A stretch of 60,934 nucleotides of DNA, counting the filler. It is 6 parts of 6 records of this genome, joined end to end, with 100 filler letters (N's around TTAATTAATTAA, not from the genome) between each part and the next. Parts side by side here need not be neighbours in the genome. Positions count along the whole stretch, not along the records: positions 1 to 10,185 come from SRR7504441_1985; 5 more parts are not named here. One strand, 5' to 3'. Below the pieces are notes generated by a model, which was given only the letters and a program-made list of their open reading frames with translations, did not search any database and was not told the origin of the DNA. Below, in pieces: positions 1-47,300 of this stretch (position 1 is the stretch's first letter; each line of letters begins with the position of its first letter). The position numbers were made by a program, and so were the translations under genes.

Positions 1-1
1 C

Positions 2-196
2 GACCGGTCTCGTCGAAGCCTCGTGGCAGCAACCGGCTGCAGAGGACGCAACGTTGCTAGGCTTGTGCATCATCGCGTTCCTCGGTTCCTTGTGGCGTGG
101 TTGCTAGCCTCGGTCGACTGCGCCCGTCCCCAGGACACCCTAGGAAATGAGTCTGGCGCCACTCCAGCTTCGAGCACCTCCAGTCCTAACGCATGA
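2..196 (+). CDS. 3' end of a gene entering from the left edge (possibly a short-chain dehydrogenase C-terminus)
   Basis: Frame 2 is open from the window start to TGA at 194-196 (DRSRRSLVAATGCRGRNVARLVHHRVPRFLVAWLLA...PNA*), followed by an AT-rich convergent spacer. Resemblance to SDR C-termini is weak. Confidence 0.35.
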   Translation, partial: DRSRRSLVAATGCRGRNVARLVHHRVPRFLVAWLLASVDCARPQDTLGNESGATPASSTSSPNA

Positions 197-440
197 AGGT
201 CTACGTACCAGGTATTAAAATAGTACGATTTTCCCCGGCCCCCCTGATAATACGAGGATCTCTACAGCACATGTACAGTATTTAGTAGTAGATCTCTAGG
301 ATGACCATGAGGATTTTAATTGGAACAATCAGTTATCTTTACAGACTTTACTACTCCGGCGTACAAGTAAATCTTTACCAAAATTGTCAAGGTTAGATTG
401 TTACAAGTTAGTAGTAACTGTTACTATCGTCGATACTCTA

Positions 441-2681
441 TCAATACTTCAGGATGAGACCACCAAAGCTTACGCCTGCGCTTGTGCCGCACAAAAGCAC
501 CTTGTCACCGCGTTTGATCTTGCCCTGCTTGACACCCTCATAAAGCGTGAGAGGGATGGACGCAGCAACACAATTACCGAATCCCTCAATTGTTGTGATG
601 ATTTTCTCCTTAGGCCACCCCAACGCCTGTAGTGAGGAGAGCCCTGCCCCACTAGCTTGATGCGGGACCACCCATTGCAGATCATGCAGTCCCTTCGACA
701 GGCCCGGAAGGAGTCTCTCGAGATAGTGTTCCAAGTGCTTTCCCGCAAATTCCATCATGCTCGGGTGCATACTTAGGTACTGGTCTTCAGTCTGGGTTTG
801 GCCGCCTTGGCCCAGCCCAGCGTGCTCATTCGGAAGACGTCTGTTGCCACCGCCTCGAATCTCACATAAGTCAGCACCCTCGGAGAATGTCTCGATTTCA
901 ACCCTGACTATCGCACTCTCTTCGTGAGCTCCGCTCGGCACCACCACTACTGCGGCAGCAGCGTCACCAAATAAAACAGCCGAATGCATGTCGTTGGGAT
1001 CTAAGCCATGGTGTGTCATCTCGCTCGATGATATAACTACAGCCTTGAACCGACCAGTTGTGATCAGGGCTCCAGCCAGGTCCATCGCTGTCACAAAACT
1101 GAGACACGTGCTACTAACACTGAAGCATGTGATTCCCGATTGGCTGAGCCCTAGTGCTCTCTGCAGCAGGGGGCTACCATCTGGCAAGGATTGGTGATAA
1201 GTACCACTTGCATTGATGATGCAATCGATTTGCTCTAGGGTCATGTTGGCTGACAGCACTGCCTCGCGCACAGCGTGTGCCGCCATCTCTGGCTGGCTCT
1301 CGCCGCAGTTGGGATCGGCCATGTGCCGCTGAGTCACACCACTCTGCACTCTGTCAGTGCTCCCAGGATCCCAGCCAAACCGTTTCTCTAGGTCGGCATT
1401 TGTTACCACCTTGCGAGGCAAGTATCGCCCAACGCCTGCGATGCGCGTGTGGTAACAGAATGAGGGCGCGTTTGCAGCTCGTTGCAAGACTATTGCCGAA
1501 GCGCCATCTGCATCGCTGCTCGCCAGCTTTTCTGCAGCTCGTGTGCTGATCTGGTGCACGCGCTTGACGTAGCGCTGCATTGCATCAGTTTTGCTGAGCC
1601 CGGCCGCCTGACACCACCCCCGCCACTTGAGCATCTGTCTGGTCTGAGCTGCCGGAGGGGCTTCAGCCTTCTGGTCGCCCAGCTTCGCCTGCTTGTAGTG
1701 GCCGTAGAGATAAGCCGCATCATCAGTCGAGATGTACAGGGCCATCCCTGGCAACATGGCAGCCGCGACCTCAAACTGTCGAGTGACTGAGAGGCCAGGC
1801 TCGAGCCACGGCTGGGGCGGCCCAGCACTACCTTGTGACAGTAGCAGCGCGCGAAGGCGGCTGATGATTCCATACCGTTGATCTGCAAACGTCCCAAACA
1901 GGTACAAGTAGCTCGTGTAGACGAGTCCCGTCGCCAGCAGCGAGCTATCCGAGACGGCACATGACACTCCACTCAGCTTCTTGAGCCAACCGGCCAGCCC
2001 GACTAGTGCTATTGCGATTGCCATTTGAGCACACTGGGCGAGTGTGATGATGAGCGGCACCCGCGAATGCCGGATCTCAGGGAAGAGGTCGGCCAGCCCA
2101 AAGTAGGAGTACATGCCGGCATGCACCCCGAAGTTCATCGTGGCGAGCCATGCGCTAGTAGGGCTCTGCTGCACGCACTCATTCCAGGCTAGGAGCATCG
2201 CCGACGGATGGTGCCACAGATGGAGCGCCGACGGCCGCTTGCCGGCACTCAGCAGCAGCGCGGTGTCGCCAAACTCAAGTAGCTTGGACCAGACGAACAG
2301 CATCGCCCACAGCCCGGCCGCCCCCTGGGTAAGTAGCCCCTTGGCCTCCTCGTCGCATACGGTGTGCGCCAGCCCGTCCGCCCACAGGGTATGAACCAGC
2401 GCCGGCGCCAGCCTGGTGAACCCGATCGCAGAGAACAGCGCCAGCCCTATGTTCCAAGCGACCCGTATCCAGGGCGGCAGCGCCAACGTCGGCTGCCGCG
2501 CCGCGTGCCACAGGCCGACGGCGAAGACATAGCCCAGCGCGGCATAAGCAGACCAGAGCTGGTGCTCGCGCATCCAGCCGGTCGCTGGCCCGGCATCGAA
2601 CGAGTTCTCGAACGGCGTGTAGGCAAAATGCCCGAGCCCGCCCGGGTAGGACCAGGCCGGGCAGGAGTGGTCGCCTGTCAT
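441..2681 (-). CDS. Fusion protein: ELO/GNS1-SUR4 fatty acid elongase + acyl-CoA-binding (ACBP) domain + KAS III (FabH-like 3-oxoacyl synthase)
   Basis: One uninterrupted ORF from ATG 2681. ELO motifs KLLEFGDT, HLWHH, NFGVHAGMYSYF and ITLAQCAQM with TM helices. ACBP motifs LYGHYKQA, KWRGW and AMQRYV. KAS III motifs IAGVGRYLP, STCLSF (catalytic Cys), LFGDAAAA, PHQAS (His) and GNCVAASIP (Asn). Confidence 0.92.
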   Translation of the reverse strand: MTGDHSCPAWSYPGGLGHFAYTPFENSFDAGPATGWMREHQLWSAYAALGYVFAVGLWHAARQPTLALPPWIRVAWNIGLALFSAIGFTRLAPALVHTLWADGLAHTVCDEEAKGLLTQGAAGLWAMLFVWSKLLEFGDTALLLSAGKRPSALHLWHHPSAMLLAWNECVQQSPTSAWLATMNFGVHAGMYSYFGLADLFPEIRHSRVPLIITLAQCAQMAIAIALVGLAGWLKKLSGVSCAVSDSSLLATGLVYTSYLYLFGTFADQRYGIISRLRALLLSQGSAGPPQPWLEPGLSVTRQFEVAAAMLPGMALYISTDDAAYLYGHYKQAKLGDQKAEAPPAAQTRQMLKWRGWCQAAGLSKTDAMQRYVKRVHQISTRAAEKLASSDADGASAIVLQRAANAPSFCYHTRIAGVGRYLPRKVVTNADLEKRFGWDPGSTDRVQSGVTQRHMADPNCGESQPEMAAHAVREAVLSANMTLEQIDCIINASGTYHQSLPDGSPLLQRALGLSQSGITCFSVSSTCLSFVTAMDLAGALITTGRFKAVVISSSEMTHHGLDPNDMHSAVLFGDAAAAVVVVPSGAHEESAIVRVEIETFSEGADLCEIRGGGNRRLPNEHAGLGQGGQTQTEDQYLSMHPSMMEFAGKHLEHYLERLLPGLSKGLHDLQWVVPHQASGAGLSSLQALGWPKEKIITTIEGFGNCVAASIPLTLYEGVKQGKIKRGDKVLLCGTSAGVSFGGLILKY

Positions 2682-2796
2682 CACTCTGCGCGTGCCACAC
2701 CTGGTTGACCAAAGCGAGACTCCCTCCTGCGGATTCAGCTTCAGGAACGAAAGAATCCCACCTCACTGCTCAGGACATGAGGGTGGGCGGGCAGAG

Positions 2797-5067
2797 ATGA
2801 AGTCGGACCCGCCCGAGGAGGGGGACCGCATCACGACTCCCAACGCCCTGTTGTCAGCCAGAGCGAACGGGCTTGCTTGCCCGACTGCCACAGCCGCCGG
2901 CTGCTTGTGCGCGGCGCTGGCCCGGCACTTGGTCCGACCGACCCAGCTCCGGGGGGCACTCGGGAACTGGTTCGGACAACACTGCCCGCACGGCCCGGTG
3001 CCAGCTCAGCTGATCCAGTGGAGGGCGCACGCCATCCGGACACCGCACCGACCGTGTGTCATCTTCAAGCGGCCAGACTTCCAGCCGGCTGGCTGCCCGG
3101 ACTGGCTGCCGGTGTTCCTGTGGCCGGGCTCCAATCCAGTGCCGCTTATCCTCCTGGCCGCCGCTGTGGTGGTCGCCGCTCTCATGACTGCTGCGGTCAT
3201 CGGCTCGCGGTCGTTGGACGGATGGCTGGTTGGAGGAATCGCTGTGCTGCTGGCTGACCTCGCTTGGTGGCTCTCGCGTAGGAAGCGCCGATTCGCCCAG
3301 GCGGTTATGCGCAACCGGGAATGGTCCAGCCTGAGCTTCCGCGATTTCCACCGCCAAATGGAGGCCGCCCTCAGCCAGCTTAATGCGAGGGGTCCGCGCA
3401 CTATTTGGATGCTTCAGATGCCCGAAGATCAGTCCCAGCTCCTAGTTTGGTACATGGCTGCTATGCTGAGCAACAGCACATACTTAGCGCTCGACCCGAA
3501 TGCATTCCCTATCTGCGAGTACATCAAGCACGTGGAGTCGTTCCAACCCGATTTAATAGTGGCCACATGTCCAATCAAGTGCATCGTTCGGGCTCTGCGC
3601 ATATGCTGCTGCTGCTTTAAACACATAACGTCATTCATAACTCTCGTCACCAGCAGAATCGCGCGCCGCAAGATTGACGCTGCTCGCTTCAGACAGCCTG
3701 ATGATACTGCAATCGTCGCAAATACCTCTGGCACAGGTGGAACAAGCAAAGCTGTTCAGCTCACCCGCGGTAATATGGCAGCTCAATTCGAGTCCTTCAA
3801 GGATCTCGTCCTGACGAGCGAGGCGCGTGTATCCTTGCACGCGCACCCGATACCAGCAGGGGTTTGTGACATGTGTCTTGGGGCAACGCTTGTGTTCCCA
3901 CCCTTTATGCCGCCAGGGGAGATCGACCGCCACTTCCTGCTGGAGCATTACATCAAACCTGCCAATGCATATCGGGTCGAGTGTATGAGCGCTCCAGTCA
4001 GGACATGGGAAGACATTGCAGACTTTGCGTGCGAGCAATCAGCGGATCCAGCGGATCCCCGAGTTGTTCTTCCATCGGTAGAATCTGCGCTGACCGGTGG
4101 TACTCCACTCTTCATTGGACTACTCAACCGCCTGTGCTGTCCAGAGACTGGCTGTGCACACACACTGCAGGAAGGGGTTTGCCTCACCAGCGTTTATGCT
4201 CTCACCGAGGCGCTACCAGTGGCCTCAACCCAAAGTTGCCGCCACTTGTGCTCTAGGAGGTATCGGGCACGTGCAGAGCTTGGCTGTGGTGTTCCGTTCG
4301 GTTCAGCTCTGGGGGATGCCCAGCTTCATTTAGTTCCGCTGGTTCTAGATCTCTGCGAGACGCAGTTCCCGCTCCCGCTGGCAAAGTTGGCAGTCTCAGG
4401 TCCGATGGTGGCTAAGAGTTACGGCACAGACACTGCAGCACAGTTGGATCTGCCGCACGTGGTGGTGCAAAATGCCTGGTCTGATGCGGCTCCAGTTTCC
4501 GCTTTTTGTACTGGCGATTTGTGCTGGGAAGACCCGTGCGGGGAGCTTTGGTACTGTGGGAGACAAGCGGACGTGCTAGGGTTTCCATCAGGCCGTGACG
4601 CAATTACATGTGTCCCGCCTGTGTGTGTAGAGAGTGCAGTCTATTGTTCTCCACTTGTGCGCCAGTGTTGTCTGGCGAGTGTGAGCTGTAATGAGGCTGA
4701 GACTCCTGTGTTAGTGGTGAGAGTTGCCGACAGCCAAGCAGCTGAGTCATGGACCTCGGGTGAGACACAGCTCGAGTTAATTTCCTTGCTAAATAAGTGC
4801 ATTTGGGCCGCTGCATTACGCCGCATCGGTCTGCTCAAATACGAAGATGACAGCCCATTTCCAACAGATTACCGTCACAACTCTAAAATTCAAAGGCATC
4901 TGATACAGGACTGGGCCGCCGAGAATTCGGTTGACATGGATCTCTTCAGTCTGGAAGCTAATACCGAATCCTCACTTGACCGTGCATTTGGTTTTGACGA
5001 AGACTTGCCGAAGGGTGAAGCCACTTTCGAGGCTCCGGTGTTGACGGCGATTGGAGTCGAGATTTGA
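2797..5067 (+). CDS. OleC-like AMP-dependent (ANL superfamily) ligase / putative beta-lactone synthetase with N-terminal membrane hairpin
   Basis: ANL motifs NTSGTGGTSKAV (P-loop), YALTEALPV, TGDL and WYCGR. The C-terminal FPTDYRHNSKI matches the OleC-type FPVDIRHNAKI with the catalytic Lys. First in-frame ATG is at 2797. Confidence 0.8.
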   Translation: MKSDPPEEGDRITTPNALLSARANGLACPTATAAGCLCAALARHLVRPTQLRGALGNWFGQHCPHGPVPAQLIQWRAHAIRTPHRPCVIFKRPDFQPAGCPDWLPVFLWPGSNPVPLILLAAAVVVAALMTAAVIGSRSLDGWLVGGIAVLLADLAWWLSRRKRRFAQAVMRNREWSSLSFRDFHRQMEAALSQLNARGPRTIWMLQMPEDQSQLLVWYMAAMLSNSTYLALDPNAFPICEYIKHVESFQPDLIVATCPIKCIVRALRICCCCFKHITSFITLVTSRIARRKIDAARFRQPDDTAIVANTSGTGGTSKAVQLTRGNMAAQFESFKDLVLTSEARVSLHAHPIPAGVCDMCLGATLVFPPFMPPGEIDRHFLLEHYIKPANAYRVECMSAPVRTWEDIADFACEQSADPADPRVVLPSVESALTGGTPLFIGLLNRLCCPETGCAHTLQEGVCLTSVYALTEALPVASTQSCRHLCSRRYRARAELGCGVPFGSALGDAQLHLVPLVLDLCETQFPLPLAKLAVSGPMVAKSYGTDTAAQLDLPHVVVQNAWSDAAPVSAFCTGDLCWEDPCGELWYCGRQADVLGFPSGRDAITCVPPVCVESAVYCSPLVRQCCLASVSCNEAETPVLVVRVADSQAAESWTSGETQLELISLLNKCIWAAALRRIGLLKYEDDSPFPTDYRHNSKIQRHLIQDWAAENSVDMDLFSLEANTESSLDRAFGFDEDLPKGEATFEAPVLTAIGVEI

Positions 5068-5184
5068 CCACATGTGGCTTTGATTGACGTCACAAATTAT
5101 TAAAGCAAAGGAGACTAGAATCTGTATTACGATCGCGAGTACACGTACTTGTATAATCTAACAGTTTCATCCCCGTATCTAAGC

Positions 5185-6129
5185 TTAGAACAATTCACGG
5201 AACGCCCGGCGAGCAGCTGGACCACGAAGTTTTGCACCGGGAGCAGCTCCGGTCACACGCGGCAGATCTAACCAATCTCTGAATTTGGACAAGCAATGTG
5301 CCGCGCAGATCATCGGTTGGATCACCAACTTGGCGAAGACAAATGCAGATAATACCTTGAGCATCAGCAATACCCCATTGACATTGGTTGCCCGCCACGT
5401 CCCTCGGGCGTACTCTAAGCGCCCGGGGGCATGCTCGTGTTCATGCTTCCACCAAACCGAGATGCTGCAATTGAACCGGCCCTTGTGCACCACATAGTGC
5501 CACCAACACCGCGGCACGTACAGAACGTCGCCGGGCTCGAGCAGCACTGTCGAACCCAGGCCGGCAAGCTCTCGGGCGTCACGCGCCGCCAGAAAGTGCA
5601 GCGGGAAAGGCAGCGCCGGCACGTCTGGCCCTGGGGCGATCAGCCTCACCTCCTTGGCGCCGCTCAGCACTTGAAGGAAATTGTGGTCCCCACGTGCGTC
5701 CCAGTGGAGCCAGGAAGCGAACTCCGGCTCGTCGCGCACTGGAGGCGCACTCGACAGCCACATCCCCACTGCCTGCAGGAGGCTCTTGGCCGGCAGGAGG
5801 TCAGCGACCCTCCCAATATCGCCCGGGCGCGCAGTCGTCTGACCGCTGCTCGTACCTAACGCCGCACCACTCGTGTACCATAGTGCCGTGCGGGCTGTGG
5901 CTGATGCCAGCGTCATTGGCCACCAGACGGCAGATCGGGCCACCGCGGGGAAGGAGCCAGATGGACTGAACGCCGCGATGTGGACCGGTAAGGTCCCTGC
6001 GGCGGCGCGGCTCAGGCAGCGGGCGTGGGTCGCCTCAAAGTCTCTCACACGCTTTAGTCGCGCAGGCCGCCCGCCCTGCACGTGCTCTCGAAACTCGGCC
6101 TCGCTCTGGGCTTCACTGATGGTGGACAT
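5185..6129 (-). CDS. JmjC/cupin-8 Fe(II)/2-oxoglutarate hydroxylase
   Basis: HWD...HNFLQVLSGAKEVRL and LEPGDVLYVPRCWWHYV give the HxD...H metal triad and the 2OG-binding Lys. Hydrophobic C-terminal segment. Start at ATG 6129 preferred because ATG 6213 abuts the ATAD3 start. Confidence 0.85.
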   Translation of the reverse strand: MSTISEAQSEAEFREHVQGGRPARLKRVRDFEATHARCLSRAAAGTLPVHIAAFSPSGSFPAVARSAVWWPMTLASATARTALWYTSGAALGTSSGQTTARPGDIGRVADLLPAKSLLQAVGMWLSSAPPVRDEPEFASWLHWDARGDHNFLQVLSGAKEVRLIAPGPDVPALPFPLHFLAARDARELAGLGSTVLLEPGDVLYVPRCWWHYVVHKGRFNCSISVWWKHEHEHAPGRLEYARGTWRATNVNGVLLMLKVLSAFVFAKLVIQPMICAAHCLSKFRDWLDLPRVTGAAPGAKLRGPAARRAFRELF

Positions 6130-6130
6130 C

Positions 6131-6177
6131 CTCCACTGGGCGCTCCAAACACCCTCCACTGGCGCGCTCCAAACGCC
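6131..6177. repeat. Two-copy ~23 bp tandem repeat in the divergent spacer between the JmjC and ATAD3 genes
   Basis: CTCCACTGGGCGCTCCAAACACC followed by CTCCACTGGCGCGCTCCAAACGCC. Confidence 0.8.
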
Positions 6178-6213
6178 GAGGAATCCCAACGGACCCGAAC
6201 GTCCCCGAGCCAT

Positions 6214-8621
6214 ATGCGCGGTGTGGGTCGGGTTTCGAAGCTGCTGCCGGCGCGGGTGCGGTCCATGTGCCGGGGCGGGGCGTACGACGACGCTCGGTTC
6301 AAGAAATTCGTGCGGGAGGAGAACGACAGGGTTCGCGAGGTGGTGGCCGGCATGGTACGGGACAGCAGCGAGGCTGAGCGGAAGGCCAACGCGGCGCTGC
6401 TCGGGCTGTCGGTGCTGGGTGGCGTCTGTGTGCTAATGAACCTGTCGGACGAGTTCGCAAACGCGGTGGCGCACCTGCTCCGACTGAAGTCCACCTCGCA
6501 CACTGTCAATGTCCAGGCCGGCGGCGGTGCCAGCGGCCGCGGACAGGGCCAGCCGGGTCCTCCGGGCCCGCGCGGACCACCTGGGTCAGTGGACCAGGCG
6601 GAATTGAGCCGGGCAATTGGGCTCCAGCTGGGCAAGCTGGCCGAGCAGGCAGAAAAGGCCGCAGAGCGCAAACTGGAGGTGAGCCGGCAGATGCAGCGGG
6701 AACGCACCAAGGCCGAGGCCGAGGCCCAGGAGAAGCAGGCTCAGGCCGAGCAGCGGAGACGTGCGGAGGACGCACGGGCAGCCGAGCGGGCGCGGGCTGC
6801 GGCGGCCGTGGCGCACAAGCAGCAGCTTGAGCGGGCTGCGGAGCACGCCAAGAGCGAACGGAGGGCTGTGTCGGAGCACCAGAGGCGTAAGGCCGAGCAG
6901 GCCCGGGAGGCGGAGCAGGCGGCGCTCATGGCGCAGCGGCAGCTGGCGGAAGAGAGGAAGCGGGAGAGGGAGCAGGCCGCCAGGGAGCTGATGACCTCGC
7001 AGCAGCGGCTGCACCAAGATAAGCGCCAGAGGGAGGAGGAGGCTATCAAGAACGAAGCGCGACTGGGGGCGGCCAAGCGGGAGGCGGAGGCCAAGTTGGC
7101 GGCTCAGAGGGAGAAGCAGGCGGTCGAGCAGGAGCGCAAACTGCTTGAGTTGAGGCAAGAGGCCGAGAGCCGGATGGCTGCGGAGAGGGAGCGCCGAGAG
7201 ACCAGTGTGGCAGTGGCGCAGGCAAAGGCTAAGGCAGAGGCCGAGGCCGAGGCTGAGCGACAGAACGAGCAAGTCCGAGCTAGGGCTCGTGCTCAGGCGG
7301 GGGGGATTGAGAGCGATCGTGCGGTGAGGGTGGCCAGCACGGTGCTCAGCTCGATAGGTTCCGGGGTTCAAGGTTTGCTCGCCGACACGGAGCGACTCTC
7401 TCGGCTTGTGGCGGCCACTGGGGCGTTAGTGGTGGTCGGATTCACCGCCCGGGAGGGTGCCAAGCTGGCCCGAGGGCTGCTCGCGGCCACTCTTGGGCGG
7501 CCTGGGCTAGTGCGGGAGACCTCGCGGCTGGTGTGGACTAAGCCAGTCCAGTCGCTCCGGCAGCTGCAGCAGCGCTTGGCTCGGACCGCGAGTCTAGACC
7601 GGGCCTTCTCTGAGGTGGTGCTCAACCCACCGCTTCGAGCACGGATGCAAGGGATAGCGGAAGCCACCAAGAACACTCGCGCTAACGGAGCACCGTTCAG
7701 ACACACGTGCTTCTACGGTCCACCCGGCACAGGGAAGACAATGCTGGCTAAGAAGCTAGCATACTACTCTGGACTGGACTACGCCATCATGAGTGGCGGG
7801 GACGTGGGACCACTTGGGTCTGGAGCCGTCACTGAGATTCATAAACTCTTTGAGTGGGCAAGGTGGCAGCCAAGCCCTGCTGCCAGCCAGCAGTTGGCAG
7901 GTATTCGCGTAACGGGCTCCTGCTGTTTGTGGACGAAGCGGAGACGTTTCTAGCCACACGCGACTCGCACATGTCGGAGGCCCAGCGCAACGCGCTGAAC
8001 GCTCTACTCTTCCAGGCATTGCGTTGGGCGACTGCGGGCAGAGCCTGGGCAGACTGGGACCGAATCGCGCAACTTCATGCTGGTGCTTGCAACCAACAGA
8101 CCGGCCGACCTGGACGCGGCTGTGGTGGACCGGATAGACGAGATGGTTGAGTTCCCACTGCCCGGGCTGCAAGAGCGCCAGGAGCTGGCCCGGTGCTCCC
8201 CAGCCATGGAGAGGGCGAGCCTTGCGGGGCAGCATGTACTTCAAGTCTATGGTGGAGGAGAGCCGATCGAGCTCGCAGATTACGCTGACAGGGGTGGAGG
8301 GGAGCCACTTTTGTAGAATTGCGGAAATGACCGATGGATACTCGGGCCGAGCGTTGGCCAAGCTGATGATCTCTGTGCAGGTAAAGCCCGTGTAGTGCCG
8401 CAGCTGACGCTGGCTGTGATATAGGGCTATGTTTATGGTAAATCGGAGCCGAAACTGGACGGACCGGAGCTAATGGAGGTCACCTGCCGGTTTTAAGGCT
8501 TGCACTTACTTACTTGTGTGGTATTCTGCATGCGTAGGTGGTCGAGCAAAAGGTCGCTGCCTATGCTAAGCGGACGAAGCTGGAAGAGCTTCAAGAGCAA
8601 TACTTCGCGCGTGGGTCTTAA
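6214..8621 (+). CDS. ATAD3: ATAD3-family mitochondrial AAA+ ATPase (spliced, 5 introns)
   Basis: Coiled coil, LGRPGLVRETSR, Walker A YGPPGTGKT, DYAIMSGGDV, Walker B LLLFVDEAE and VLATNRP. The frame is restored by introns 7863-7900, 8016-8052 (GC-AG), 8193-8232, 8381-8424 and 8479-8537. Stop TAA at 8619-8621. Confidence 0.92.
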
Positions 8622-8789
8622 TTAAAGTGTACATGTACCATGTGATTCAGCAAGTTGGTGATAATCACGAGCGAGTATTAAGACGTTCAGTCGGATGAAT
8701 AGATTAATGTTGCATGAATTTAAAACGAGACTACCGACCCGCTTAGTACCGATCCGCGCCGAGGTTGATTAGAGATTGATCATGAAGGC

Positions 8790-10052
8790 TCAATGCGGCT
8801 GTTGCATGTGTCGGATAGCTCGCCCAAGACGTTCTAAGAGGGACCACGGTACTCGCTGGCGCCAGCCAAGGTGACTGGCATATACTTGCATCAACTCGAC
8901 AGCAGACGTGGCACCTCGAGACCGCTTGAAGTCTCCGGCACCGCCAGACGCATGACAGCATAAGCCGTGCCGCTTCGCCTCTTGCATAATCTTCAAGCTC
9001 AGCAACCGGTAAAGTCCCACAGCTTGAGGCAAGCGCGTCTCGTACCCAAAAAACGGAGTTGTCAAGAGCCCACCACGCCGGTAGTAGCCAATGACGCCGT
9101 CAATTTCTCCGTGCCGTACGTTGACAAGGATGAAGACCGTAAGCAGCTGTTGGGTCACAGCTGTGCGTACAAACTCTGCCGTATACTGGGGATTGCAGGC
9201 GGTATACTTGTCAATGTATAGCAACACATAGAGCTCAACCACTCGATCTAGCACTCTGGGAGCTGGTGCACTATCGAGTAATTGCCACTCATATTGCCCA
9301 TCAGAACTGTCGGCGTTGCATAGCTGCTTCCTGGCAAGCTTCTGGTCATTCTTTATGGGATTCCTACCCCAGACTTCCTCGGAGAGCACGTCTTGGTAGT
9401 GAACATACCGCTCAGGGACCCGAGACCAGCCCAGCTTGTCTAGCGCCGCTAAGGTGTGTGGGCTGCCGATTTCATCCAGAGATCGGTAGGCTAGGGCGTG
9501 GCTCGGGTGTGAGGCGAGCAGCTCTTCTGTCAATTCCCGGAGAAGCGCTTCCAGCCGTTCGGGCTCCTTGGGCATCTGGCTGGGGTGTAGGTTGGTGGAG
9601 AGTAGAAAGTTGTTCACATAGACCACTTTATCCATGCTGCAGCACCACCCCACCAATATCCAACACCAGCAGACTCCTATCAGCACAGCCGCCGCCACCG
9701 CTGCCACAAAATCGGCCAGCCCAGCTGGCTTGAGCCCGCGCAGTTGAAGCCTCCGGGCGAGCACGGGCCGGAGAACAAGCACTTCATCGATCACAACCCA
9801 GCCAAAATGCGAGTGAGCGGACGAGGTGTATGATCGTCGCCACGGCCAACAAGGCCGCCGGCACGGCCGCGACAGTGGAACGAGCACTCGGCCGTGGCCC
9901 AGCACCGCAAGCCCCACCTCAGTCCCCCCTGCGTTCCTTATGAAAGCTTCAGTCCCCCCGGCGGCCAGCTCACAGAGGTACCTGCGCACAAACTGGGACT
10001 CCGCGTCGGCGGGCCAGCTGAGGCTCTCCAGCTCGGTGCCCCAGTAAATCAT
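8790..10052 (-). CDS. Bacterial-type GNAT/FemAB-fold protein with an inserted TM segment
   Basis: Intronless ORF with motifs VNNFLLSTNL, LYIDKY..CNPQYT..F, TTPFFGYET.LPQ.VGLYRLL and HASGGAGDFKRSRG. The last is the typical C-terminal G..FK..G signature of GNAT_6/Fem-like proteins. Confidence 0.7.
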   Translation of the reverse strand: MIYWGTELESLSWPADAESQFVRRYLCELAAGGTEAFIRNAGGTEVGLAVLGHGRVLVPLSRPCRRPCWPWRRSYTSSAHSHFGWVVIDEVLVLRPVLARRLQLRGLKPAGLADFVAAVAAAVLIGVCWCWILVGWCCSMDKVVYVNNFLLSTNLHPSQMPKEPERLEALLRELTEELLASHPSHALAYRSLDEIGSPHTLAALDKLGWSRVPERYVHYQDVLSEEVWGRNPIKNDQKLARKQLCNADSSDGQYEWQLLDSAPAPRVLDRVVELYVLLYIDKYTACNPQYTAEFVRTAVTQQLLTVFILVNVRHGEIDGVIGYYRRGGLLTTPFFGYETRLPQAVGLYRLLSLKIMQEAKRHGLCCHASGGAGDFKRSRGATSAVELMQVYASHLGWRQRVPWSLLERLGRAIRHMQQPH

Positions 10053-10185
10053 CGTGCGCTGCCCGTCGCCATTGGGCAGTCCTCACCCTGCGAGCAGATT
10101 CCCACCCGCTACCCGCAACCGAGTCAATCCAACGGCTTCTGGCGGTGAGGACTGCCGACCGGGCGCTCAGGAGGGTCGAGGGGTG

Positions 10186-13030: not shown

Positions 13031-13318
13031 TGTCCACTATGCTCCCACGGAACACTATACTACTCCGATTATGTGCCAACGAACATCGAATCTCTGGTAG
13101 ACCAGCAAGGACCTTGCTGGTCAGCCGGCGAGGACGCCAAACTTGTGCTCAACTACTTGTACTTAACAGACTTAAAACGCGATTCAGGCATGATCTGATC
13201 ATGCAGATCTATTCATGATGAGAAATTGCTATTGAGACTAACTTTAATCAATGAAACAAATCATGTTGTCTTGATGCACTCCAGCCCAGGCAAAGTGCCG
13301 TTACAGTGCCATTGCGCA

Positions 13319-13909
13319 ATGATCCCAGTTGTGGGCCTCCTGCTCAGCGGCTACGTGCCCGATGCCTTCTTCTCGGCGCTTCTCGCGGCCTTCCCACTCC
13401 GAGTCCACTCGGGCTACCAAGCGCTGCTGCTCGCCACGGCGCTCGTCTACCTCCCGGTGAGCCCTCGGCGGGCTGACAAAAAAATTGAGCTGGGCGGACA
13501 GTTCGGGCTCAATTTGCTGTACAAACTCAAGCTGACAGGCGGCAAAGTGGACAACGTCAACCCGCGCAAGCAGGCCGAGACGCTCAAGGCCACCCACCCG
13601 GCTTTCGCCCGACTGGCGGTGCGCAGCCCTGCCCTCATGGCCGGGACCGGCTGGCTACAGGCGGCCGAGCAGAACATGCAGGAGGGGATGCTGATCTTTG
13701 CGCCGGCCGTGCTGGCCGCCACGCAGGCCGGGGTTTCCAAGGTGCTGATCTGCCAGTTTGGTACTGCCTGGCTGCTCGCCCGCGCGGCCTACGTCTTCGT
13801 CTATGCTATTGGATCGAACGAGGCCCTAGGCGCACTCCGGTCTTTGCTGTTTGTCATCAGCCTTCTGGCCACCGGGAAGCTGCTCCACGCGGCAGCCGCG
13901 CTGGCTTGA
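13319..13909 (+). CDS. MAPEG family membrane protein
   Basis: DNVNPR.Q, AAEQNMQEG (AH.N..E-like) and LARAAYVFVY, with about 4 TM helices. Confidence 0.8.
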   Translation: MIPVVGLLLSGYVPDAFFSALLAAFPLRVHSGYQALLLATALVYLPVSPRRADKKIELGGQFGLNLLYKLKLTGGKVDNVNPRKQAETLKATHPAFARLAVRSPALMAGTGWLQAAEQNMQEGMLIFAPAVLAATQAGVSKVLICQFGTAWLLARAAYVFVYAIGSNEALGALRSLLFVISLLATGKLLHAAAALA

Positions 13910-15487: not shown

Positions 15488-17129
15488 ATGGAGCCGGCCG
15501 CGGACGACGAGGCGGCGCTGAGCCAGCTGCGGAAACAGAACGCGGAGCTCAAGGAGCAGCTCCACCTGCGGAACGACGCCGAGGACAAGGAGCTCCGGCA
15601 ACTGTTCCCGCACCTGCCCGACACGGAACACGTTATAGACTACTTCGCCTGCGCACTCTCGGCCAAGATCCTGCTGCAGGGTGCCCGGCCCGGACGCTCG
15701 GCCGGCCATCGAGGGCAGGCTGGATGTACCTGACCCCGAATTATATATGCTTCTCTTGCAACCTGCTCGTGTACAAGCGCCGCGAGTGCTTCGAGCTGAA
15801 GGAGGTCACAAAGATCTCCAAATCGCGGCACGCTGGGGTGGGCGCGGCATGGGTCGGCCCCGGGCCGAGGCCGGTCAGGTCAATCCGGGGGTGTGTCTGC
15901 ACCTAGGCAGCAAGAAAGTCTTCTTCTTCTCGTTTTTCGATCGGGATAAGGTTGGCGGCCGGGCCGAGCCGGGCTGCAACTGGCGACAGGTGATGATGCT
16001 GCTCCAACGGCTGGTCGACCTCCACAAGGAGCAAGACGAGGACGCGGAGGAGGACTTTGAAGAATACGTGTACGAGGTGAACCGACCGCGCCGCGCTACT
16101 GAACCGGGCGCAGGACGTGGTGGCCTCGATCACGCCAGAGGGCGGCTCCGCATTCCCGGAGGCCGCTGTAGACAAGGACGAGTCCGGTGGCTGCCGGGGG
16201 CTGCCGGGGGCTGAGGGATGTGCAGCGTATAAGAATAAAGTGCACAGCTGTGAGCTACCTATGACTACTAGAGAGGCGTTTGCGTTGCTGTACTCCGAGC
16301 CTAGCAACTTCACGATGAAGAACAAGGAGTACGAGGGCGCGTCGGAGGTGTCTCCAACGGCAGCCCCCGGGCCTAGGCTCGGCCAGATCACTATCTCCCA
16401 ATGGGCCACCCCAGCGGACAAAAAGGAGGGTTGGATCCGAGAACTCAATTTCCGTTATCCTCTGGACGGGATACCGATGTGTCCGCCGAGCACGATGGTG
16501 CACGAGGTTCAGCACTGCAGGTGCCCGGCCCTGCTCGGCGCCCGTCGAGCTCCTTGGATCAGGCTGGACACCGAGACTGGCCATTTGGTGGTGGTTTATG
16601 CAGTGCAAAGCCACGACGTACCGTACGGTGCCCGACCGCACCCACCCGCGGCTCAGGGCCAGGCAGGCACCTACTTCACTGTAGAGACTAAACACATATT
16701 CTCGCCTGTGGGCGAAGACAAGTGCCGGCTGGAAATCTCTATGGAGGTGCAGTCTCTCGTCGCTCGAACTGAGCCAGACGCAGGTCTGTTTCTCCAAGTC
16801 GACTTTCCTCGAGGGCAAGATCACCTCCAACACCGTCTCGCGCGAGATCGAGCGCTGGAAGGAGTGGTGCGTGTTCGTTCGAGACTACGTCGAGAGGAAG
16901 AAAGGGCTCCGCAGGTGCAGCCCAATGCAACTGGCAGGCGGCTGATCGGCTGTGAAGGTCGGCCAAGCCGTTGCCGTCCAAGCAGTCGGGCAAGGGCGAG
17001 AAGCAGCAATCGCGAGGTTATGACGACTTTGTGGCGATGGCGATTGGAGCGATGCTGATAGTTGTGTTGTTCCTAATCTGGAGAGTCAATTCACGGGTGC
17101 GGGTCTTACAAGACGCCAACCTAATTTAG
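15488..17129 (+). CDS. GRAM + VASt (StART-like) lipid transfer protein with C-terminal TM anchor (Lam/Aster type), multi-exon
   Basis: GRAM: YFACALSAKILLQG|WMYLTPNYICFSCNLL (intron 15681-15718). VASt: ITISQW...RELNFRYP...SHDVPYG..FTVETK...KCRLEIS. TM: FVAMAIGAMLIVVLFLIW. TAG at 17127-17129. Confidence 0.88.
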
Positions 17130-41347: not shown

Positions 41348-44300
41348 CTATGAACTACAGACTAGCGTTACAAGCAATTCAGTAGTAGGGCACAATGATA
41401 TAGCCCGACGGAGTACAACCATCAGCCAACTGGCTTCAAGTGCTTGAGGTTTTCCATATCTTTGTCTATGCGTATTTGATCTTCTGGCTGATCTGCATGC
41501 AGTCCAACAAGCTGGCCCTGTGACAAAATAGTTTATCACACCAATATAGTGTAACAAAATAGTTTGTTGCAGGAGCAGCTGACATGTCTCCAATATAATC
41601 ACTACATTTGCTCGGACATGTTAAGGGTTGAATCCACCGGTTCAGATCCCACAGCCACTTCTACAAGTTGCTCTTGAGAGGAAGCAAGTCGTCCAATGTA
41701 GGACCTGGCGTTTTGCATAATAATCTTCAATTTTTCAAACTCGCAAATATCGTAAGTCCCAAAATAGTATGAGCGGGTTCTCTTGTTGTCATTGACATAT
41801 CGCTTTCCAGACACTTTGAGGACCTTAGGTAGGGTATCGCCTGTACTGAGGTCCACGACATCGCCCAGAGGAGAAATGATGCTTGCAATCACAGCATTGA
41901 TGGGTAATGCACTCACTGTACCTTCCTGCGAGTCTGAGCGTGTCAGTATGTCAGATCTTTGCGCGCCAAAGTCTACATCTCTCTACAAGGCAAGAAGCAC
42001 TAAGTTGGTCCAGAGTTTGGAGCTACCGTGTGCGTGGCGATTAGTGCAGTGTCCAGCATGTACATGTTGACATGAAGGTAATCCTGCAACAAAGCGAAAC
42101 GATCAAAGCAGAGGTGCGGCAATTTCCTGGAAACCTGCTCAGTGAGAGCACCACCCTGAAGCTGATTGACTTGGACAGCCACATCTTCGGTTGGTGTCTC
42201 GTCCTCAGCTACTGGAGTGGCAGTCTGCCCATTACTTTGAAACGCCTCTGGATCCATGCTTTGCACAAATGGTGATAACTGATCTAGCAAAAGGATTCCC
42301 TTGTTTTCGAACCCTTCAGAAGGAGCACCGGCCTCAGCACTACTCACAGCCTGTTCAAACTTCTTGCCCTCGTCAGGGTACACCATGAGCTGGCTCTTTT
42401 CATCTCTCCTGTTCATGTAGAGCATGTCAGTAGCTTTCTTGATCAGTCCAGCTTCATGATCATCGTTTGCAAGGGAATCTCCTAGGAAATCTTCAATTGC
42501 CTCCTGTTTGCGAGCCTGTGCTTTGTCTTCAGCTGTAGATACATCAGCATCTCCCCTGCTCAAGGTTACAATCCTGAAAACTCTGAACATGGCAGCATAG
42601 TCCCTCCGAATTTCATGACGGGCTTTGAAAATCATGCAGAGAGATGCGAGATGCCGATGCCCTTCAAAGATCAGGCCCATCTCATTTGCTTTGGCAATCA
42701 TGCCGTTGCCATGAGGGTGAACACCACCGTGAGGGTTCCAGTCAAACAGAACCTTGCCTGAGTCATTGATAGAGTACTTCCCATCGAGGAGCTCGCTTTG
42801 GAGATACCGAGCAGCTGTGCCAAATGACCCTTCATATGTCTGGTCTTTGAGTGCATTCCTCGAGGTGAGATAGTGGTTCAAGTAACTCTCGTTCCTGAAG
42901 TAGAAAACACTCTCAAACAGTTCATCAACGTGCCCAACTGTACTCTTGAACCATTGAGACATCTCAAAGAATTCTGTTCTCTCAAGTTCAAGCTGGAACA
43001 GCGCCTCTGCCTTGCTGGTAAGCTCAGCATTGAAATCGTTTATGCGCGTGGTCCTGCTCACCCGCTTATCACTTGTGACGCTTTTGATAATTTGTTCAAT
43101 GCAGTCTTGCTGGATGTCAGCTAGCAACTGCTCAAACTGCTCCCATGACTTTGCACCATCAACACAGAGCCTGCCAAGCAGGTCTTGTTCCCAGTTTGCA
43201 GAGGCCCGCTTCCTTTTATCATCTTCTGCAAGGCGCAGATGCATTGCCACAAAGTCTGAATACGCAAGTTCTTCACCTGCTTGAATGAAGCTAATCCGGT
43301 CATCCCAGAGTGTGATGTCACCATCACTACCAGAGTGCTGGGAATCAGCACAGTCTGCCAAATGCGATGCCCGGATGCGACCAACCCAGTCTTGGAGCGT
43401 TTCATGGCTCACAGAGCCCTGGGTACCAGAGGACCCGTTTCCAATGGCCTCAGCTCCTTGGGTGAGCATCACATGCACAACACCATAAATTGCTCTAGCC
43501 TTCAGGATCAGATAAGCTGTGCGCAAGACAGCAGGTCCGAAATGAGGTTCACAGTCCTTCCCTCGGAAGTTGCTTGTGTCTCCTCTTTTGAATTCTCCCA
43601 TAGGGGCAAACACAATTCCATCGTGATCCCTCTCGACAAACTGGTCCAGTGGCTCAAAGATTTTCTTACAGCCCTCTTCTAGACCCTCCATGATTGTATT
43701 TGCGTTCTGTATAAGTTGAGTAAATGATTTCTGGGGACTGGACGAACATAACGGATCAGCACTGGCTGCTTCTGTCATGTTGTTTGCAAACAACCTGAAA
43801 GCGATCGTCTCATCTTCGACCTCCTTAAACTTCATATACCTGCGATTGCCTGTGGCATACATGGCAACAAATAGATCTGTAATGTAGTACTCCAGAAACA
43901 GGGCCATCGCGTATGGGATCGGAGCTTGAATGTGATCAAAGCAAGCCAGTCCTCTGTCTAGACTCTTATCTTCTTCCGGTGATCGGTAATCAACAGGATC
44001 GACCAGCGTCTTCCAGGCATTATAAAGCTCCTCTGTCTTGATGAAGAGATCGTACAGGGACGTTCCAGTGGTCAAATCTCCAAATATTTCATTCCAGTGA
44101 GCATCAGCAATGATCTCTACTCCACCCATTGCATTTCTGCTTGCCTGATAGTTGTCTGCATAGGCTCCAAAGTTCTGGCCAGCAGGGGCAGATGGAAGTG
44201 CATAGTACTCAAATAACAGTTTGAGATCTTTGTACCACATTTTGATCCCAGCAGCAACCGTATTTCCCATTACTTGGTCCTTTATTACTGTCAAAGTTGC

Positions 44301-47300
44301 AGCATAGTCTTCATCGTGCTTTTCTGTCAGTAGAGGAGGGCTGTCGTGGATGCCTGGTGGATTCCTGGTCTCGTAAACTGTCATTGCGTTGAGGTTGGTG
44401 AATTCAGACGCAGGAAGATTGGTCTCTGCCCATTCGATTACTTCACTCTGCCTCAGTGTCTCTTGGGGGGGCTGTCCACTTGATTCTTTGACTTCGTCCA
44501 GGGCCAAGGTGACTTTGGTTGTCAAGCCACCATGCAGAGCAAAGTCTGCCATTTCGTCAATTGTGGTAGACGTCCGAGCACTGTATGCGACAGAAACAAT
44601 GAAGTGCCCTTCAAAGCATATCTTCTCCATATTCAGGATGACGCTCATTGTCTCGTCACCAAATATCTGTGAAAAGACCGACAAACGCTCGTCAGAGGTG
44701 CAAGAAGGTATCCCTTCCTCTGAGTAGCAACTGCCACAAATACAAGTCGCCTGAAGAGCTCTTGGGTAGAGCACATTATCCAAGAGGAAGTCAATCTGTT
44801 TTGCAGTGAAAACCTTTTGCAGTGTCTCAGGTGATTTTGAGTCTGCGGCCAACGTCATCAGAGTGCGGCAAGTCCTCAGTTCAGTGATTGCCCACTTGCG
44901 CTTCTCACCTAGGAAAGTGTCATCCCATTCTAGAATACCAAAGCCTAAGCAATGCTCTTTGAAAAATGTCAGGAAGGTATCCACATCGTATGCATAGGCT
45001 TTGCCTTGAGCAGAGGCAGGCTGCATTTGAGCAAGCTTGGCATTGAACAGCTTGGGGTCCCAGATTGGACCTTTCTTTCCACCCCGAGTGTGTTGGTTCT
45101 TATAATTCTGAGGTCCATCCCATGAGTTCTCAGGAATCTTTCTGTCAAAGCATTTTGGAAATGCACTCCATGCAATGCTATAGATGTTTTCAGCTGTGAG
45201 CAAGGCATCAAGCACATCAACTCCTCCTTCGGAGTTGTTTGCCCTGAGGTGCTCCTCAACATATTCCAACAAGATTGCCTCGATTTTATCAGCTGGGGTC
45301 ATGCAGACTGGTCTCTTTGCAACATATTTGTAATTGCCTGAAATCTTGTAGTTGATCCACAGCAGATGTGCCAAAGGTAGTGTAGAAAGCAGCAGCATCA
45401 CCAGGGCTGAGACAATCATTCCAATGCACATTTGAGCAGATCCGAAAAGGAAGTCAACATCAGGTAGCATGATTGCCAGAACTCCCCAGGTGAACAGGGT
45501 CAAGGATCCGAAAATGATTAGGAGCATTGGAAAGTTGGTTGGGATCACCGGTTGGGAAAAGTCAAATGTATCGCTTGTCTTATGTATTTGAGGGACAATC
45601 ACCGGAAGGAAGAGGACCGATGAATGAGACCACGAAAAGGTGTTTTCTGACAGGGCAAAGCCAACACCAATAAATATCAGGAACATGATGCCACAGAAGG
45701 CAGTTGCCGTATACATCACAACTTCAGCACCCCGGGAATGCGCATCCACTTTGTAGGCAATAATAGCCATTGTAGCACATGCACCACCAACTAGCAATAC
45801 AAAGATGACAAAACCAGAGATGTACTCCCAGTGGTCCACCATCAAATCAACACAATTGGTACAGTAGCCACCGTGGTTGTCGTCATCATATATCAACAAA
45901 TTACCTTCATCATCATGTATTTGCATAGCATGCAGAGTACTTGCTTTATTAGCTTGACTGGCAGCACCTTGATCAGAGGGGTCCTGATCTTGGTCCAAGT
46001 CGTCCAGCTTAAGATAGGTCAAACGCCGGTCTTGACGAGCTTCCATTCGCTTGTCAGTATGCTGGTCTAAAACACGGGTGGCAACTCGCTTGCACACATA
46101 CAAGAGAAACAGATAACCAAGGACAGCTGCAAGGATAGCAACCTCAGCACCAACAATGGTAGCCTTGGTATCAGAAGTTTCGCCCCACTGGTCCTTACAC
46201 CATTGGTACACACTGGCCAGGAGACCAGCAGCCGGCAACACCCAGATTTTGTCAACATTTTGCAGCAGCCAACCGTCTTCGTAGCCAACCATAGAAGAGC
46301 GCAAACCAATCAGAATCAAGTCCACCAAAAGGTACCATGCACAGGAAAAAGTGACCACAACCCAAGTTCCATCAGCGGCATATAGGATTGCATTCAGGAT
46401 GGCAACAAGTACGAAACCAATCAGTAGGAAATCATCCATAAAGGAGTCTGCCATCTTATGCGCCAACCCTCGAACAATGGGGAGAATACAAGTCAGACCA
46501 GCAATAACCCCAATCGCAATGCTGAGCCCCTCAAGAGCAGAATACCAAGCAATAATGCCTACAATCCATCCAACGAAGCAAGCAAACCCAATGAGGGTGA
46601 GGTAAATATTCATTTGGTCTCTGAAGCGCATCATACCAGTGCGCCAGGCCAACCAGCGTGAGCGGAAACTCGAATAGTCTGTAGAGGTCCAGAAATAATA
46701 CTTGTTTCGAGACCATGATTGGATCACAATGAACCAGCAGATGAGCACAACTGGCAAGAAGATCGAAAACAGGATGTTGCGCTTATTGCCTCTCTTGTCA
46801 CACCCAAGCCACTCTGTGTTGTTCCCAGGATCATAGGCAAGAACAATGCCGAAGAATCCAGACAACATGAACCCAAAGAAGGTGCCAACAACAGCTCCCC
46901 AATACCCTCTGAAGATTGATTCATTGTATGCTTCAATCTCTTCAATCTTTTTTCTGTCCAGACCTCCTAACTTGGGCCACCGGTTCTCTTCATTTGCAAT
47001 CACCGCAAGCTCACGGATACGATCTTCCCCGAGGAATGTGTGTTCACTGGAAGCTTGTGATAGCTGCTCCGAAGTCAATCGGTACCTGCAACGCTGCGCA
47101 GCTCTCTGAGCGGCAGCTCTTCCAGTAACTGCCATTGTCTTGAGCTGGCGGCCAAAGCCACTGCTGGTGAAGAAGCTGTGTGCCAAACATGCCCCGTAGA
47201 TGGCTGCTGCAATCTGCTGCTTCCGTGTAGCATTTACGGATGCTCCGCCTTGGTATTTTGCAGCTTTCTGAGCCTCCTTGGCAATGTACTCAACTCCCCA

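Follow-up and report, generated by a model that had tools for sequence, protein, structure and literature searches.

A window of 60,934 nucleotides (60.9 kb; the whole stretch of DNA that was analyzed, made of six parts joined end to end, with positions 1–10,185 from record SRR7504441_1985) contains on its minus strand a gene for a fusion protein, P0001, in which an ELO-type elongase, an acyl-CoA-binding protein domain (ACBP) and a ketosynthase (KS) with the KAS III fold (KAS III, 3-oxoacyl-ACP synthase III; ACP, acyl carrier protein) follow each other in one polypeptide. The three domain families are well known, and their combination has no described counterpart. By sequence and fold comparison, the KS belongs to the branch that includes CorB and MxnB and can be counted neither as an ordinary FabH nor as an OleA. 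In the most likely reading, to which we give a probability of about 40%, the KS would intercept the β-keto intermediate made by the ELO domain and couple to it, in a head-to-head manner, a second acyl or β-ketoacyl thioester.

The frame at 441–2684 (minus strand) runs for 747 codons without stop, its ATG and TGA fall on the ends given in a first-pass annotation made from the letters alone, and no intron is required, so that the coding sequence is single-exon. Four Pfam matches (ELO, ACBP and the two halves of KAS III), each above its cut-off, together with the family alignments, agree with the content that was then proposed for this single frame, namely the three domains with intact key residues. 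The positions proposed for the HLWHH motif and for the catalytic cysteine are exact, and the PHQAS and GNCV motifs are present as stated. All coordinates are collected in Table 1.

Table 1. Coordinates in the window of the fusion gene, of its domains and motifs, and of the divergent neighboring gene
Feature	Position	Strand	Remarks
ELO–ACBP–KAS coding sequence (P0001)	441..2681	-	ATG 2681–2679, TGA 443–441; 746 codons from ATG; full-length alignment to homologues
ELO domain (GNS1/SUR4, PF01151)	1872..2567	-	Residues 40–271; Pfam 145.6 bits (cut-off 27), E 2.4e-42; seven long helices
ELO KxxExxDT box (KLLEFGDT)	2262..2285	-	Motif scan and family alignment
ELO His box HLWHH	2208..2222	-	Residues 155–159; three His invariant in 19/19 rows
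ELO NxxxHxxMYxYF box	2100..2135	-	Motif scan and family alignment
ELO TxxQxxQ box	2025..2045	-	Motif scan and family alignment
ACBP domain (PF00887)	1557..1781	-	Residues 302–376; Pfam 48.2 bits (cut-off 28.3), E 1.3e-12
KAS III-fold ketosynthase, CorB/MxnB-like branch	444..1448	-	Residues 413–747; NCBIfam, PDB sequence search, Foldseek, trees
Leu500 codon	1185..1187	-	Aligns with OleA Glu117, PpyS Glu105 and CorB/MxnB Val94; hand count on PDB alignment
Catalytic Cys527 codon	1104..1106	-	Family alignment, PDB alignment, motif scan
Catalytic His675 codon	660..662	-	PHQAS here; PHQPS in CorB and MxnB
Catalytic Asn704 codon	573..575	-	GNCV motif
Spacer between divergent start codons, putative shared promoter	2682..2796	.	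115 bp
P0002, AMP-binding enzyme, PRK09274/OleC-like branch	2797..5067	+	From first in-frame ATG; whole ORF 791 codons
P0002, strongly hydrophobic segment	3145..3201	+	ORF residues 152–170; second at 177–195; Kyte–Doolittle scan

The N-terminal domain is, by its fold and motifs, an ELO condensing enzyme of seven helices in which none of the four catalytic boxes is missing, with a predicted 3-ketoacyl-CoA synthase activity. ELO enzymes are recognized by the boxes KxxExxDT, HxxHH, NxxxHxxMYxY and TxxQxxQ, and all four are invariant in the fusion family (19/19 rows). An AlphaFold2 (AF2) model of residues 1–299 is confident (pLDDT 89.3, pTM 0.85) and contains seven long helices; with Foldseek against the PDB, human ELOVL7 (6y7f, chains A and B) is its sole significant match (E 3e-4, TMt 0.73). 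In a phmmer search of the ELO domain against PDB sequences, ELOVL7 is not matched, and the fold search was needed to reach it. The direct product of an ELO enzyme is a 3-ketoacyl-CoA. The C-terminus of ELO enzymes is cytosolic, so that the ACBP and KS domains of P0001 would face the side on which the ELO active site opens.

Between the two condensing domains, the ACBP keeps in the alignment the full set of acyl-CoA-contacting residues. Y327, K331, K353 and Y372 are invariant in 21/21 family rows and identical in human ACBP (2cb8); they form the Tyr/Lys/Lys/Tyr set that we take to contact the acyl-CoA.

In the KS, Pfam recognizes ACP_syn_III at residues 521–598 (62.7 bits, cut-off 24) and ACP_syn_III_C at 667–747 (80.8 bits, cut-off 26.6). 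The catalytic C527, H675 and N704 are invariant across 21/21 family rows. Among NCBIfam models, the nearest is PRK07204 (302.7 bits against a cut-off of 402), ahead of the generic FabH models, which also stay under their cut-offs (PRK09352, 193.6 against 249; TIGR00747, 178.1 against 292.1). Against PDB sequences, CorB comes first with 229 bits (E 7e-67), followed by MxnB with 225, the best FabH with 150 and OleA chains with about 56. Foldseek with the KS model places CorB and MxnB at ranks 1–3 (37% identity for CorB, 34–35% for MxnB, at most 30% for FabH), and FabH structures superpose on it about as well as CorB does (TMt 0.81–0.87). Two of the closest homologues that stand alone were checked, and one of them, P0034 (45% identical), behaves in the same way, with 342 bits for CorB against at most 178 for FabH. 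A search of the ESM Atlas with P0001 gave no usable match.

The P0001 family and CorB/MxnB have in common the motifs PHQ[AP]S and GT[GS][SA]G and a hydrophobic residue where OleA has its glutamate. In FabH, the counterparts of these motifs are PHQAN and a Gly-rich loop. The column of Leu500 contains only L, I or V in 21/21 family rows. The first-pass annotation had grouped the domain with FabH/OleA-type enzymes, and a likeness to OleA has to be given up in view of the OleA score and of this column. Of the positions of the distal channel, L231/L232 align by hand count with M643/M644 and V269/V270 with A680/G681.

What the missing glutamate implies can be seen from enzymes already studied. According to the PpyS paper, the glutamate that deprotonates an unactivated acyl chain is Glu117 in OleA and Glu105 in PpyS, while CorB and MxnB have Val94 there; in the substrate of the latter two, the nucleophile carbon sits between two carbonyls, and a valine suffices for that reason. 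The CorB and MxnB papers describe both as dimers with a T-shaped cavity of two tunnels, in which two β-keto thioesters are condensed head to head and no CO2 is lost, the coupling leading to the α-pyrone of corallopyronin or myxopyronin. A widened His–Asn spacing is a further trait of this enzyme type.

The fusion is not confined to the window. A word-indexed protein search gave 25 matches, of which 18 combine ELO with KAS III (15 of them also with ACBP), two contain ACBP and KAS only, and five are unrelated KAS forms. An exhaustive HMMER search of 1.84 billion representatives gave 11,452 matches with E ≤ 1e-3, of which 346 reach E ≤ 1e-30; 14 of the top 150 rows are longer than 500 residues. 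Pfam was run on ten HMMER rows, nine longer than 500 residues and the 383-residue P0032. Four of these are ELO–ACBP–KAS proteins, one is ELO–KAS, one a C-terminally cut ELO–ACBP, two are ACBP–KAS and one is an unrelated protein with nine ACBP domains. In P0032, Pfam finds only the two KAS domains; since its first residues lie within the last ACBP helix, P0032 is a fusion that was cut short. At least 23 further database proteins, from five source collections, thus carry ELO together with KAS. At 33–43% identity to P0001, these homologues are old orthologues, sequenced independently. Two fusion proteins have the source label "3-oxoacyl-ACP synthase III." The linkers between the domains align across the family. 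Because the KS triad, the ACBP residues and the ELO boxes are invariant across it, all three domains are under purifying selection.

Two metagenome loci, L001 and L002, carry the full arrangement. In L002, from a microbial-mat metagenome (4110–6828), the gene is split over two overlapping frames, 4110–6239 and 6223–6828; a short intron could explain this, as could a frameshift or an error of sequencing. A transcript from a culture, P0019, whose source label begins with "Striat," starts in the tyrosine box of the ELO domain, contains the ACBP and reaches the KS end, and so crosses both junctions. Transcript evidence across the junctions, for which reads had been suggested as a check, exists for P0019 and not for the present locus: the contigs from four public runs (97–247 bases) include none that spans a domain junction of P0001. 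In an RNA library, identical short contigs fall at 2135–2284, in the region of the ELO His box, and at 3943–4168, inside the neighboring ligase gene, which is weak evidence.

The HMMER and word-indexed searches also returned proteins of other architectures. P0023, P0024 and P0026 (about 1100 residues) join KAS III to a 2-oxoacid dehydrogenase E1 (PF00676, PF02779, PF02780) and a biotin/lipoyl domain (PF00364), and are only distantly related to P0001 (22–25% identity). P0145 (1045 residues) has nine tandem ACBP domains and was matched through the ACBP part of the query alone.

A FastTree phylogeny of 229 KS rows unites the 26 fusion-family rows (three of them ACBP–KAS without ELO) and two short rows in one clade (support 98). 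This clade lies within a set of 55 rows (support 97) that includes the CorB-like stand-alone proteins P0034 and P0036. A second tree (IQ-TREE "quick") was made from 117 selected rows, namely the 26 fusion rows, the two short ones, 36 bacterial rows of the first tree and 53 from named genomes with at least 290 residues matched. The same fusion clade appears there with 99% SH-aLRT, inside a bacterial set of 74 rows with 97%; its immediate sister group lacks resolution. The KS domains of the fusion family are thus monophyletic and nested among bacterial sequences, and the KS domain is, judged by both trees, of bacterial origin. The three ELO-less proteins P0020, P0022 and P0033 form one clade nested among full fusions, which suggests a secondary loss of ELO or incomplete gene models.

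The bacterial relatives were searched in genomes with a profile from a 5-row alignment. The closest named bacteria are Polyangiales metagenome-assembled genomes (MAGs) and one Alphaproteobacteria MAG (48%, 46% and 48% identity), then Archangium and a second Alphaproteobacteria MAG (46% each), then, at 43–45%, Sandaracinaceae, other Myxococcota, Thermodesulfobacteriota, Hydrogenedentota, Chlorobiaceae, Planctomycetota and others. The KAS of a Myxococcota locus (L085) and P0034 have identical sequences. Neighbors were counted at E ≤ 1e-10 in 80 metagenome and 80 genome loci, and since many of these loci are short the counts are minima. Beside the bacterial KAS, an OleD-like reductase (NF042422, about 237 bits, under the cut-off) occurs in at least 45 of the 80 metagenome and 35 of the 80 genome loci, an MBL-fold, lactonase-like protein in at least 36 and 34, and an adenylating enzyme related to F390 synthetase (TIGR02304, 508 bits, above the cut-off) in at least 28 and 19. 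Genes for a glycosyltransferase and for an HAE3/HpnN-like transporter often accompany them. In five loci (L083, L087, L092, L104 and L150), it is instead an ANL ligase that begins no more than about 150 bp from the KAS. The ligase of L104 scores 377 bits with PRK09274 and 263 and 236 bits with the OleC models; that of L150 scores 150 bits with PRK09274. Among the ORFs seen in these neighborhoods, there are no fab genes and no ACP.

The operon itself is widespread (e.g., L012:2294–7604, L081:7983–13380, L104:6070–13566, L150:5950–10566, and many more loci). It consists of a PRK07204/CorB-like KAS, an OleD-like reductase, sometimes fused to the MBL-fold protein, and an F390-related or PRK09274/OleC-like enzyme, and frequently adds a GT21/HpnI-like glycosyltransferase and an HAE3/HpnN-like RND transporter. 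By analogy, this seems to be an unstudied two-chain lipid pathway of an Ole-like or mycolate-like kind. We found no publication on its function.

In the window, too, a ligase-like gene stands next to the KS. It encodes P0002, is divergent from the fusion gene and had escaped the first-pass annotation. Pfam assigns it to the AMP-binding enzymes (PF00501, 49.3 bits against 29.9). Its three best NCBIfam families are PRK09274 (123.4 against a cut-off of 478) and the two OleC models NF045786 (73.6 against 900) and NF045785 (61.4 against 850), with generic acyl-CoA ligase models at 30 bits or less. The core adenylation motifs of the ANL enzymes are kept (TSGTGGTSK, YALTE, TGD, GRQAD and the C-terminal NSK). 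A pair of hydrophobic segments at residues 152–195, before the catalytic domain, is likely a membrane anchor, as far as hydropathy can tell. With tblastn, P0002 finds two of the 80 genome loci (L104 and L150), both times the ligase beside the KAS, and nothing in the 80 metagenome loci even at E = 1. A word-indexed search gave no relatives, the PDB one marginal match, and the ESM Atlas generic prokaryotic AMP-binding clusters only; a literature search on PRK09274 found nothing relevant to algae. Since a CorB-like KS is paired with a PRK09274/OleC-like ligase both in bacteria and in this eukaryotic window, a shared pathway is plausible by analogy, and the two genes were possibly transferred together from bacteria. 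The spacer between the two start codons contains a short upstream ORF of seven codons (ATG 2777, TGA 2798–2800), out of frame with the ligase gene and overlapping its ATG at 2797.

With these elements, the preferred reading can be spelled out. The ELO domain would condense an acyl-CoA with malonyl-CoA into a 3-ketoacyl-CoA, part of which would escape the ketoacyl-CoA reductase of the endoplasmic reticulum (ER) and, kept near the enzyme by the ACBP, reach the dimeric KS. KAS III-fold enzymes are dimers, and a dimeric KS would bring two elongase domains together. The KS would then perform a second Claisen condensation, non-decarboxylative and head to head, whose other partner, an acyl or 3-ketoacyl thioester, would be carried by Cys527; since C2 of a β-keto thioester is acidic, an OleA-type glutamate base would be unnecessary. 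The product would be a two-chain lipid, either a long-chain 3-acyl-4-hydroxy-6-alkyl-2-pyrone, by a lactonization of the CorB/MxnB type, or a 2-substituted 3-oxo acid processed further by the ligase and host reductases. P0002 is probably part of the same pathway, although this is a weaker inference, and could activate the second fatty acid or act on the condensation product. The first-pass annotation had already proposed that the elongase hands its chain to the KS for joining with a second acyl unit. The transfer and the head-to-head joining are kept, the latter fitting the CorB/MxnB relationship and the Ole-like bacterial context; what changes is the substrate, more likely the direct 3-ketoacyl-CoA than a finished very-long acyl chain, and the OleA-type route, which is not supported.

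Of the alternatives, the one that fares best, although rather unlikely, is a sequential extension. The KS would condense a short or medium acyl-CoA with malonyl-CoA, with decarboxylation, as FabH or an acetoacetyl-CoA synthase does, and the ELO domain would extend the chain once the ER enzymes have carried out reduction, dehydration and reduction, or the order would be the reverse. In that case, the fusion would serve as an elongation module that works on CoA esters without ACP, perhaps for de novo synthesis or for mid-chain-functionalized fatty acids, and no head-to-head step would occur. The Cys–His–Asn triad is indeed that of FabH, the TIGR00747 and PRK09352 models do match strongly, FabH structures superpose nearly as well as CorB, and malonyl-CoA and acyl-CoA as substrates of both domains would suit the ACBP. 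On the other hand, the FabH models remain below PRK07204 as well as below their own cut-offs, CorB and MxnB score some 80 bits above any FabH, and the family has PHQAS instead of the FabH motif. The bacterial relatives sit beside OleD- and OleC-like genes and not beside fab genes. The two condensations would also have to be separated by reductase steps, yet the fusion includes no reductase and has none next to it.

A scheme of the OleA type appears less likely still. Here, the ELO domain and host reductases would finish a very-long acyl-CoA, the KS would join two plain acyl-CoAs into a 2-alkyl-3-ketoacid, and an OleC-like ligase would turn the reduced form into a β-lactone, on the way to ketones, olefins or β-lactones. 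The family ranking of P0002, the OleD-like reductases near the bacterial KS relatives, the OleC scores of the L104 ligase and the long-chain acyl-CoA that ACBP domains bind would all fit. The difficulty lies in the KS itself: OleA is distant, and the OleA mechanism lacks its base here because the position of Glu117, which in OleA reaches in from the partner subunit, is Leu500, with aliphatic residues throughout the family. In addition, the window contains no OleB or OleD homologue, and P0002 is far below the OleC cut-offs.

It is improbable that the KS forms no C–C bond at all and acts as an acyltransferase or esterifying enzyme, as a thioesterase-like enzyme, or as a regulatory acyl-CoA sensor that tunes the elongase. 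KAS III-like enzymes that acylate instead of condensing are known from the cervimycin, xenocyloin and nonactin pathways, the ELO-less variants retain the layout of ACBP, KS and membrane anchor, and P0001 departs from its family at the glycine of the FxMxG motif. Yet the condensing triad and the surrounding motifs are invariant in 21 diverged rows, and the nearest characterized relatives do form C–C bonds. As for an artifact, by misassembly or read-through joining separate ELO, ACBP and KAS genes, the assembly is metagenome-like, the public runs contain little of it and no contig bridges a junction, but such an origin, like a chance ORF, is excluded because the same domain order recurs in the independent records of five collections, including the culture transcript, with linkers that align family-wide and KS domains that form one clade.

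Several observations weigh against the preferred interpretation. There is no precedent for the product or activity of this family; a decarboxylative condensation with malonyl-CoA, like that of FabH or NphT7, is also compatible with the sequence. The nearest bacterial operons are uncharacterized, so that two-chain chemistry would be argued there solely by analogy with Ole, and their OleD-like, MBL-fold and F390-type genes are not found in the window (tblastn, best E 1.7). CorB and MxnB are only 34–39% identical to the KS and are soluble stand-alone enzymes of trans-AT polyketide synthase (PKS) clusters that take polyketides bound to carrier proteins, whereas the KS of P0001 is fused to ELO and ACBP in a eukaryote. 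In P0020, P0022 and P0033, ACBP and KS follow a simple N-terminal hydrophobic anchor and ELO is absent, which means that a fused ELO is not strictly required by the KS. P0001 itself has a proline at the nearly invariant glycine of the FxMxG motif of its family. On the side of the ligase, P0002 stays far under every NCBIfam cut-off, is 25% identical to the L104 ligase over 416 residues, and has no counterpart next to the fusion gene in L002, the sole other eukaryotic locus with flanks (0/1). Finally, the full-length AF2 model gives the single domains with confidence but places them relative to each other in an unreliable way (pTM 0.48). Confidence is low in the linkers 282–288 and 390–407, in residues 497–500 and in the loop 601–642; the last two have pLDDT below 50, and the loop corresponds to one that lines the cavity in CorB.

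The architecture is deposited in public databases and yet, as far as our searches reach, is not described. We found no paper on an ELO–ACBP–KAS fusion in the literature searches aimed at it. The available portions of a 2026 review on stramenopile fatty-acid metabolism, a 2025 review on diatom lipids and a 2013 paper on diatom fatty-acid genes do not mention it, and the diatom ACBP that appears in them is a lipid-droplet protein. A search on long-chain pyrones found nothing relevant to algae. The earlier statement that no described protein combines these enzymes thus holds for the literature; the combination is not unique, given its recurrence in the databases. It is possible, if doubtful, that several marine eukaryote lineages, including diatoms, make unrecognized two-chain lipids on the ER with a machine from a bacterial Ole-like cluster. 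A CorB-like KS, here together with a PRK09274/OleC-like ligase, would have been taken from bacteria, and the KS welded behind a host elongase and ACBP, the 3-ketoacyl-CoA being intercepted before its reduction. Candidate products would be acyl-alkyl-pyrones, mycolic-like 2-alkyl-3-oxo or 3-hydroxy acids, and β-lactone, ketone or olefin derivatives. If the preferred mechanism holds, no enzyme of this lineage that couples lipids head to head would have been known from a eukaryote before P0001, which would also be a rare example of an elongase whose β-keto intermediate is purposely diverted. New algal lipids, which may serve as signals, antimicrobials or sedimentary biomarkers, could be reached in this way, and a compact, ACP-free and CoA-based module of two enzymes would be of value for engineering.

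The host of P0001 is a marine eukaryote, and some diatoms apparently encode such a protein too. The window is eukaryotic, with further ORFs that bear HECT, APC10, ATAD3, JmjC, VASt, FKBP, MAPEG and sulfatase domains, and the public runs that have words in common with it are marine or seawater metagenomes, in small shares (at most 11% of the sampled words). An ATAD3 fragment of the window has best matches at 53–57%, and the named ones are mixed: Pelagomonas at 51% (over 70% of the query), Pedinophyceae at 46%, and brown algae, other green algae and land plants at 40–46%. Other lipid-related genes in the window are an ORF of the MAPEG family at 13226–13909 (+) and one with a VASt (lipid-transfer) domain at 16117–17058 (+). 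Two long ORFs are without a family. That at 42000–47969 (-) has 1989 codons and no Pfam match at E ≤ 0.001. The other, at 54253–59061 (+), has 1602 codons and no Pfam match; its very strong AT skew (0.36–0.40) and positive GC skew suggest a repetitive or low-complexity protein.

Compared with the ELO/ELOVL enzymes, such as human ELOVL7, the N-terminal domain is alike in its Pfam match, its four boxes and its fold. Known ELOs, however, are stand-alone proteins of about 250–350 residues that pass their product to a separate reductase, whereas in P0001 about 470 more residues (ACBP and KS) follow the last helix. CorB and MxnB (PDB 4yuc and 4v2p) are the best matches of the KS in sequence and fold, with the same triad, the same motifs and no glutamate base, and they use β-keto thioesters, which are the product type of an ELO. 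ORF scans of the window gave no PKS, carrier-protein, ACP or fab gene, and the place of the KS behind an ELO would point to substrates bound to CoA. With FabH, the KS shares fold and triad as well as the matches to both KAS III domains of Pfam; FabH differs by its scores, by its ACP partner, of which none was seen here, and by its operons, outside of which the bacterial relatives are found.

The likeness to the OleABCD pathway is in the PRK09274/OleC-like ligases near the KS, in the window and in bacteria, and in the OleD-like reductases near the bacterial KS. The KS is nevertheless remote from OleA, all Ole-family scores are under the curated cut-offs, and OleB was absent everywhere it was looked for. 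With the bacterial operon, the window shares the closest KS homologues (at most 48% identity) and the adjacency of KAS and ligase; the bacterial KAS, on the other hand, stands alone, without ELO or ACBP, and its reductase and MBL-fold partners are not in the window. Closest in its proposed overall chemistry is CsyB, which forms 3-acyl-4-hydroxy-6-alkyl-2-pyrones from two β-ketoacyl-CoA units in a eukaryote. Within the thiolase superfamily, however, CsyB comes from a branch of its own, unrelated to this one (17% identity with MxnB), and it makes its own β-keto units; in P0001, the fused ELO domain would supply them.

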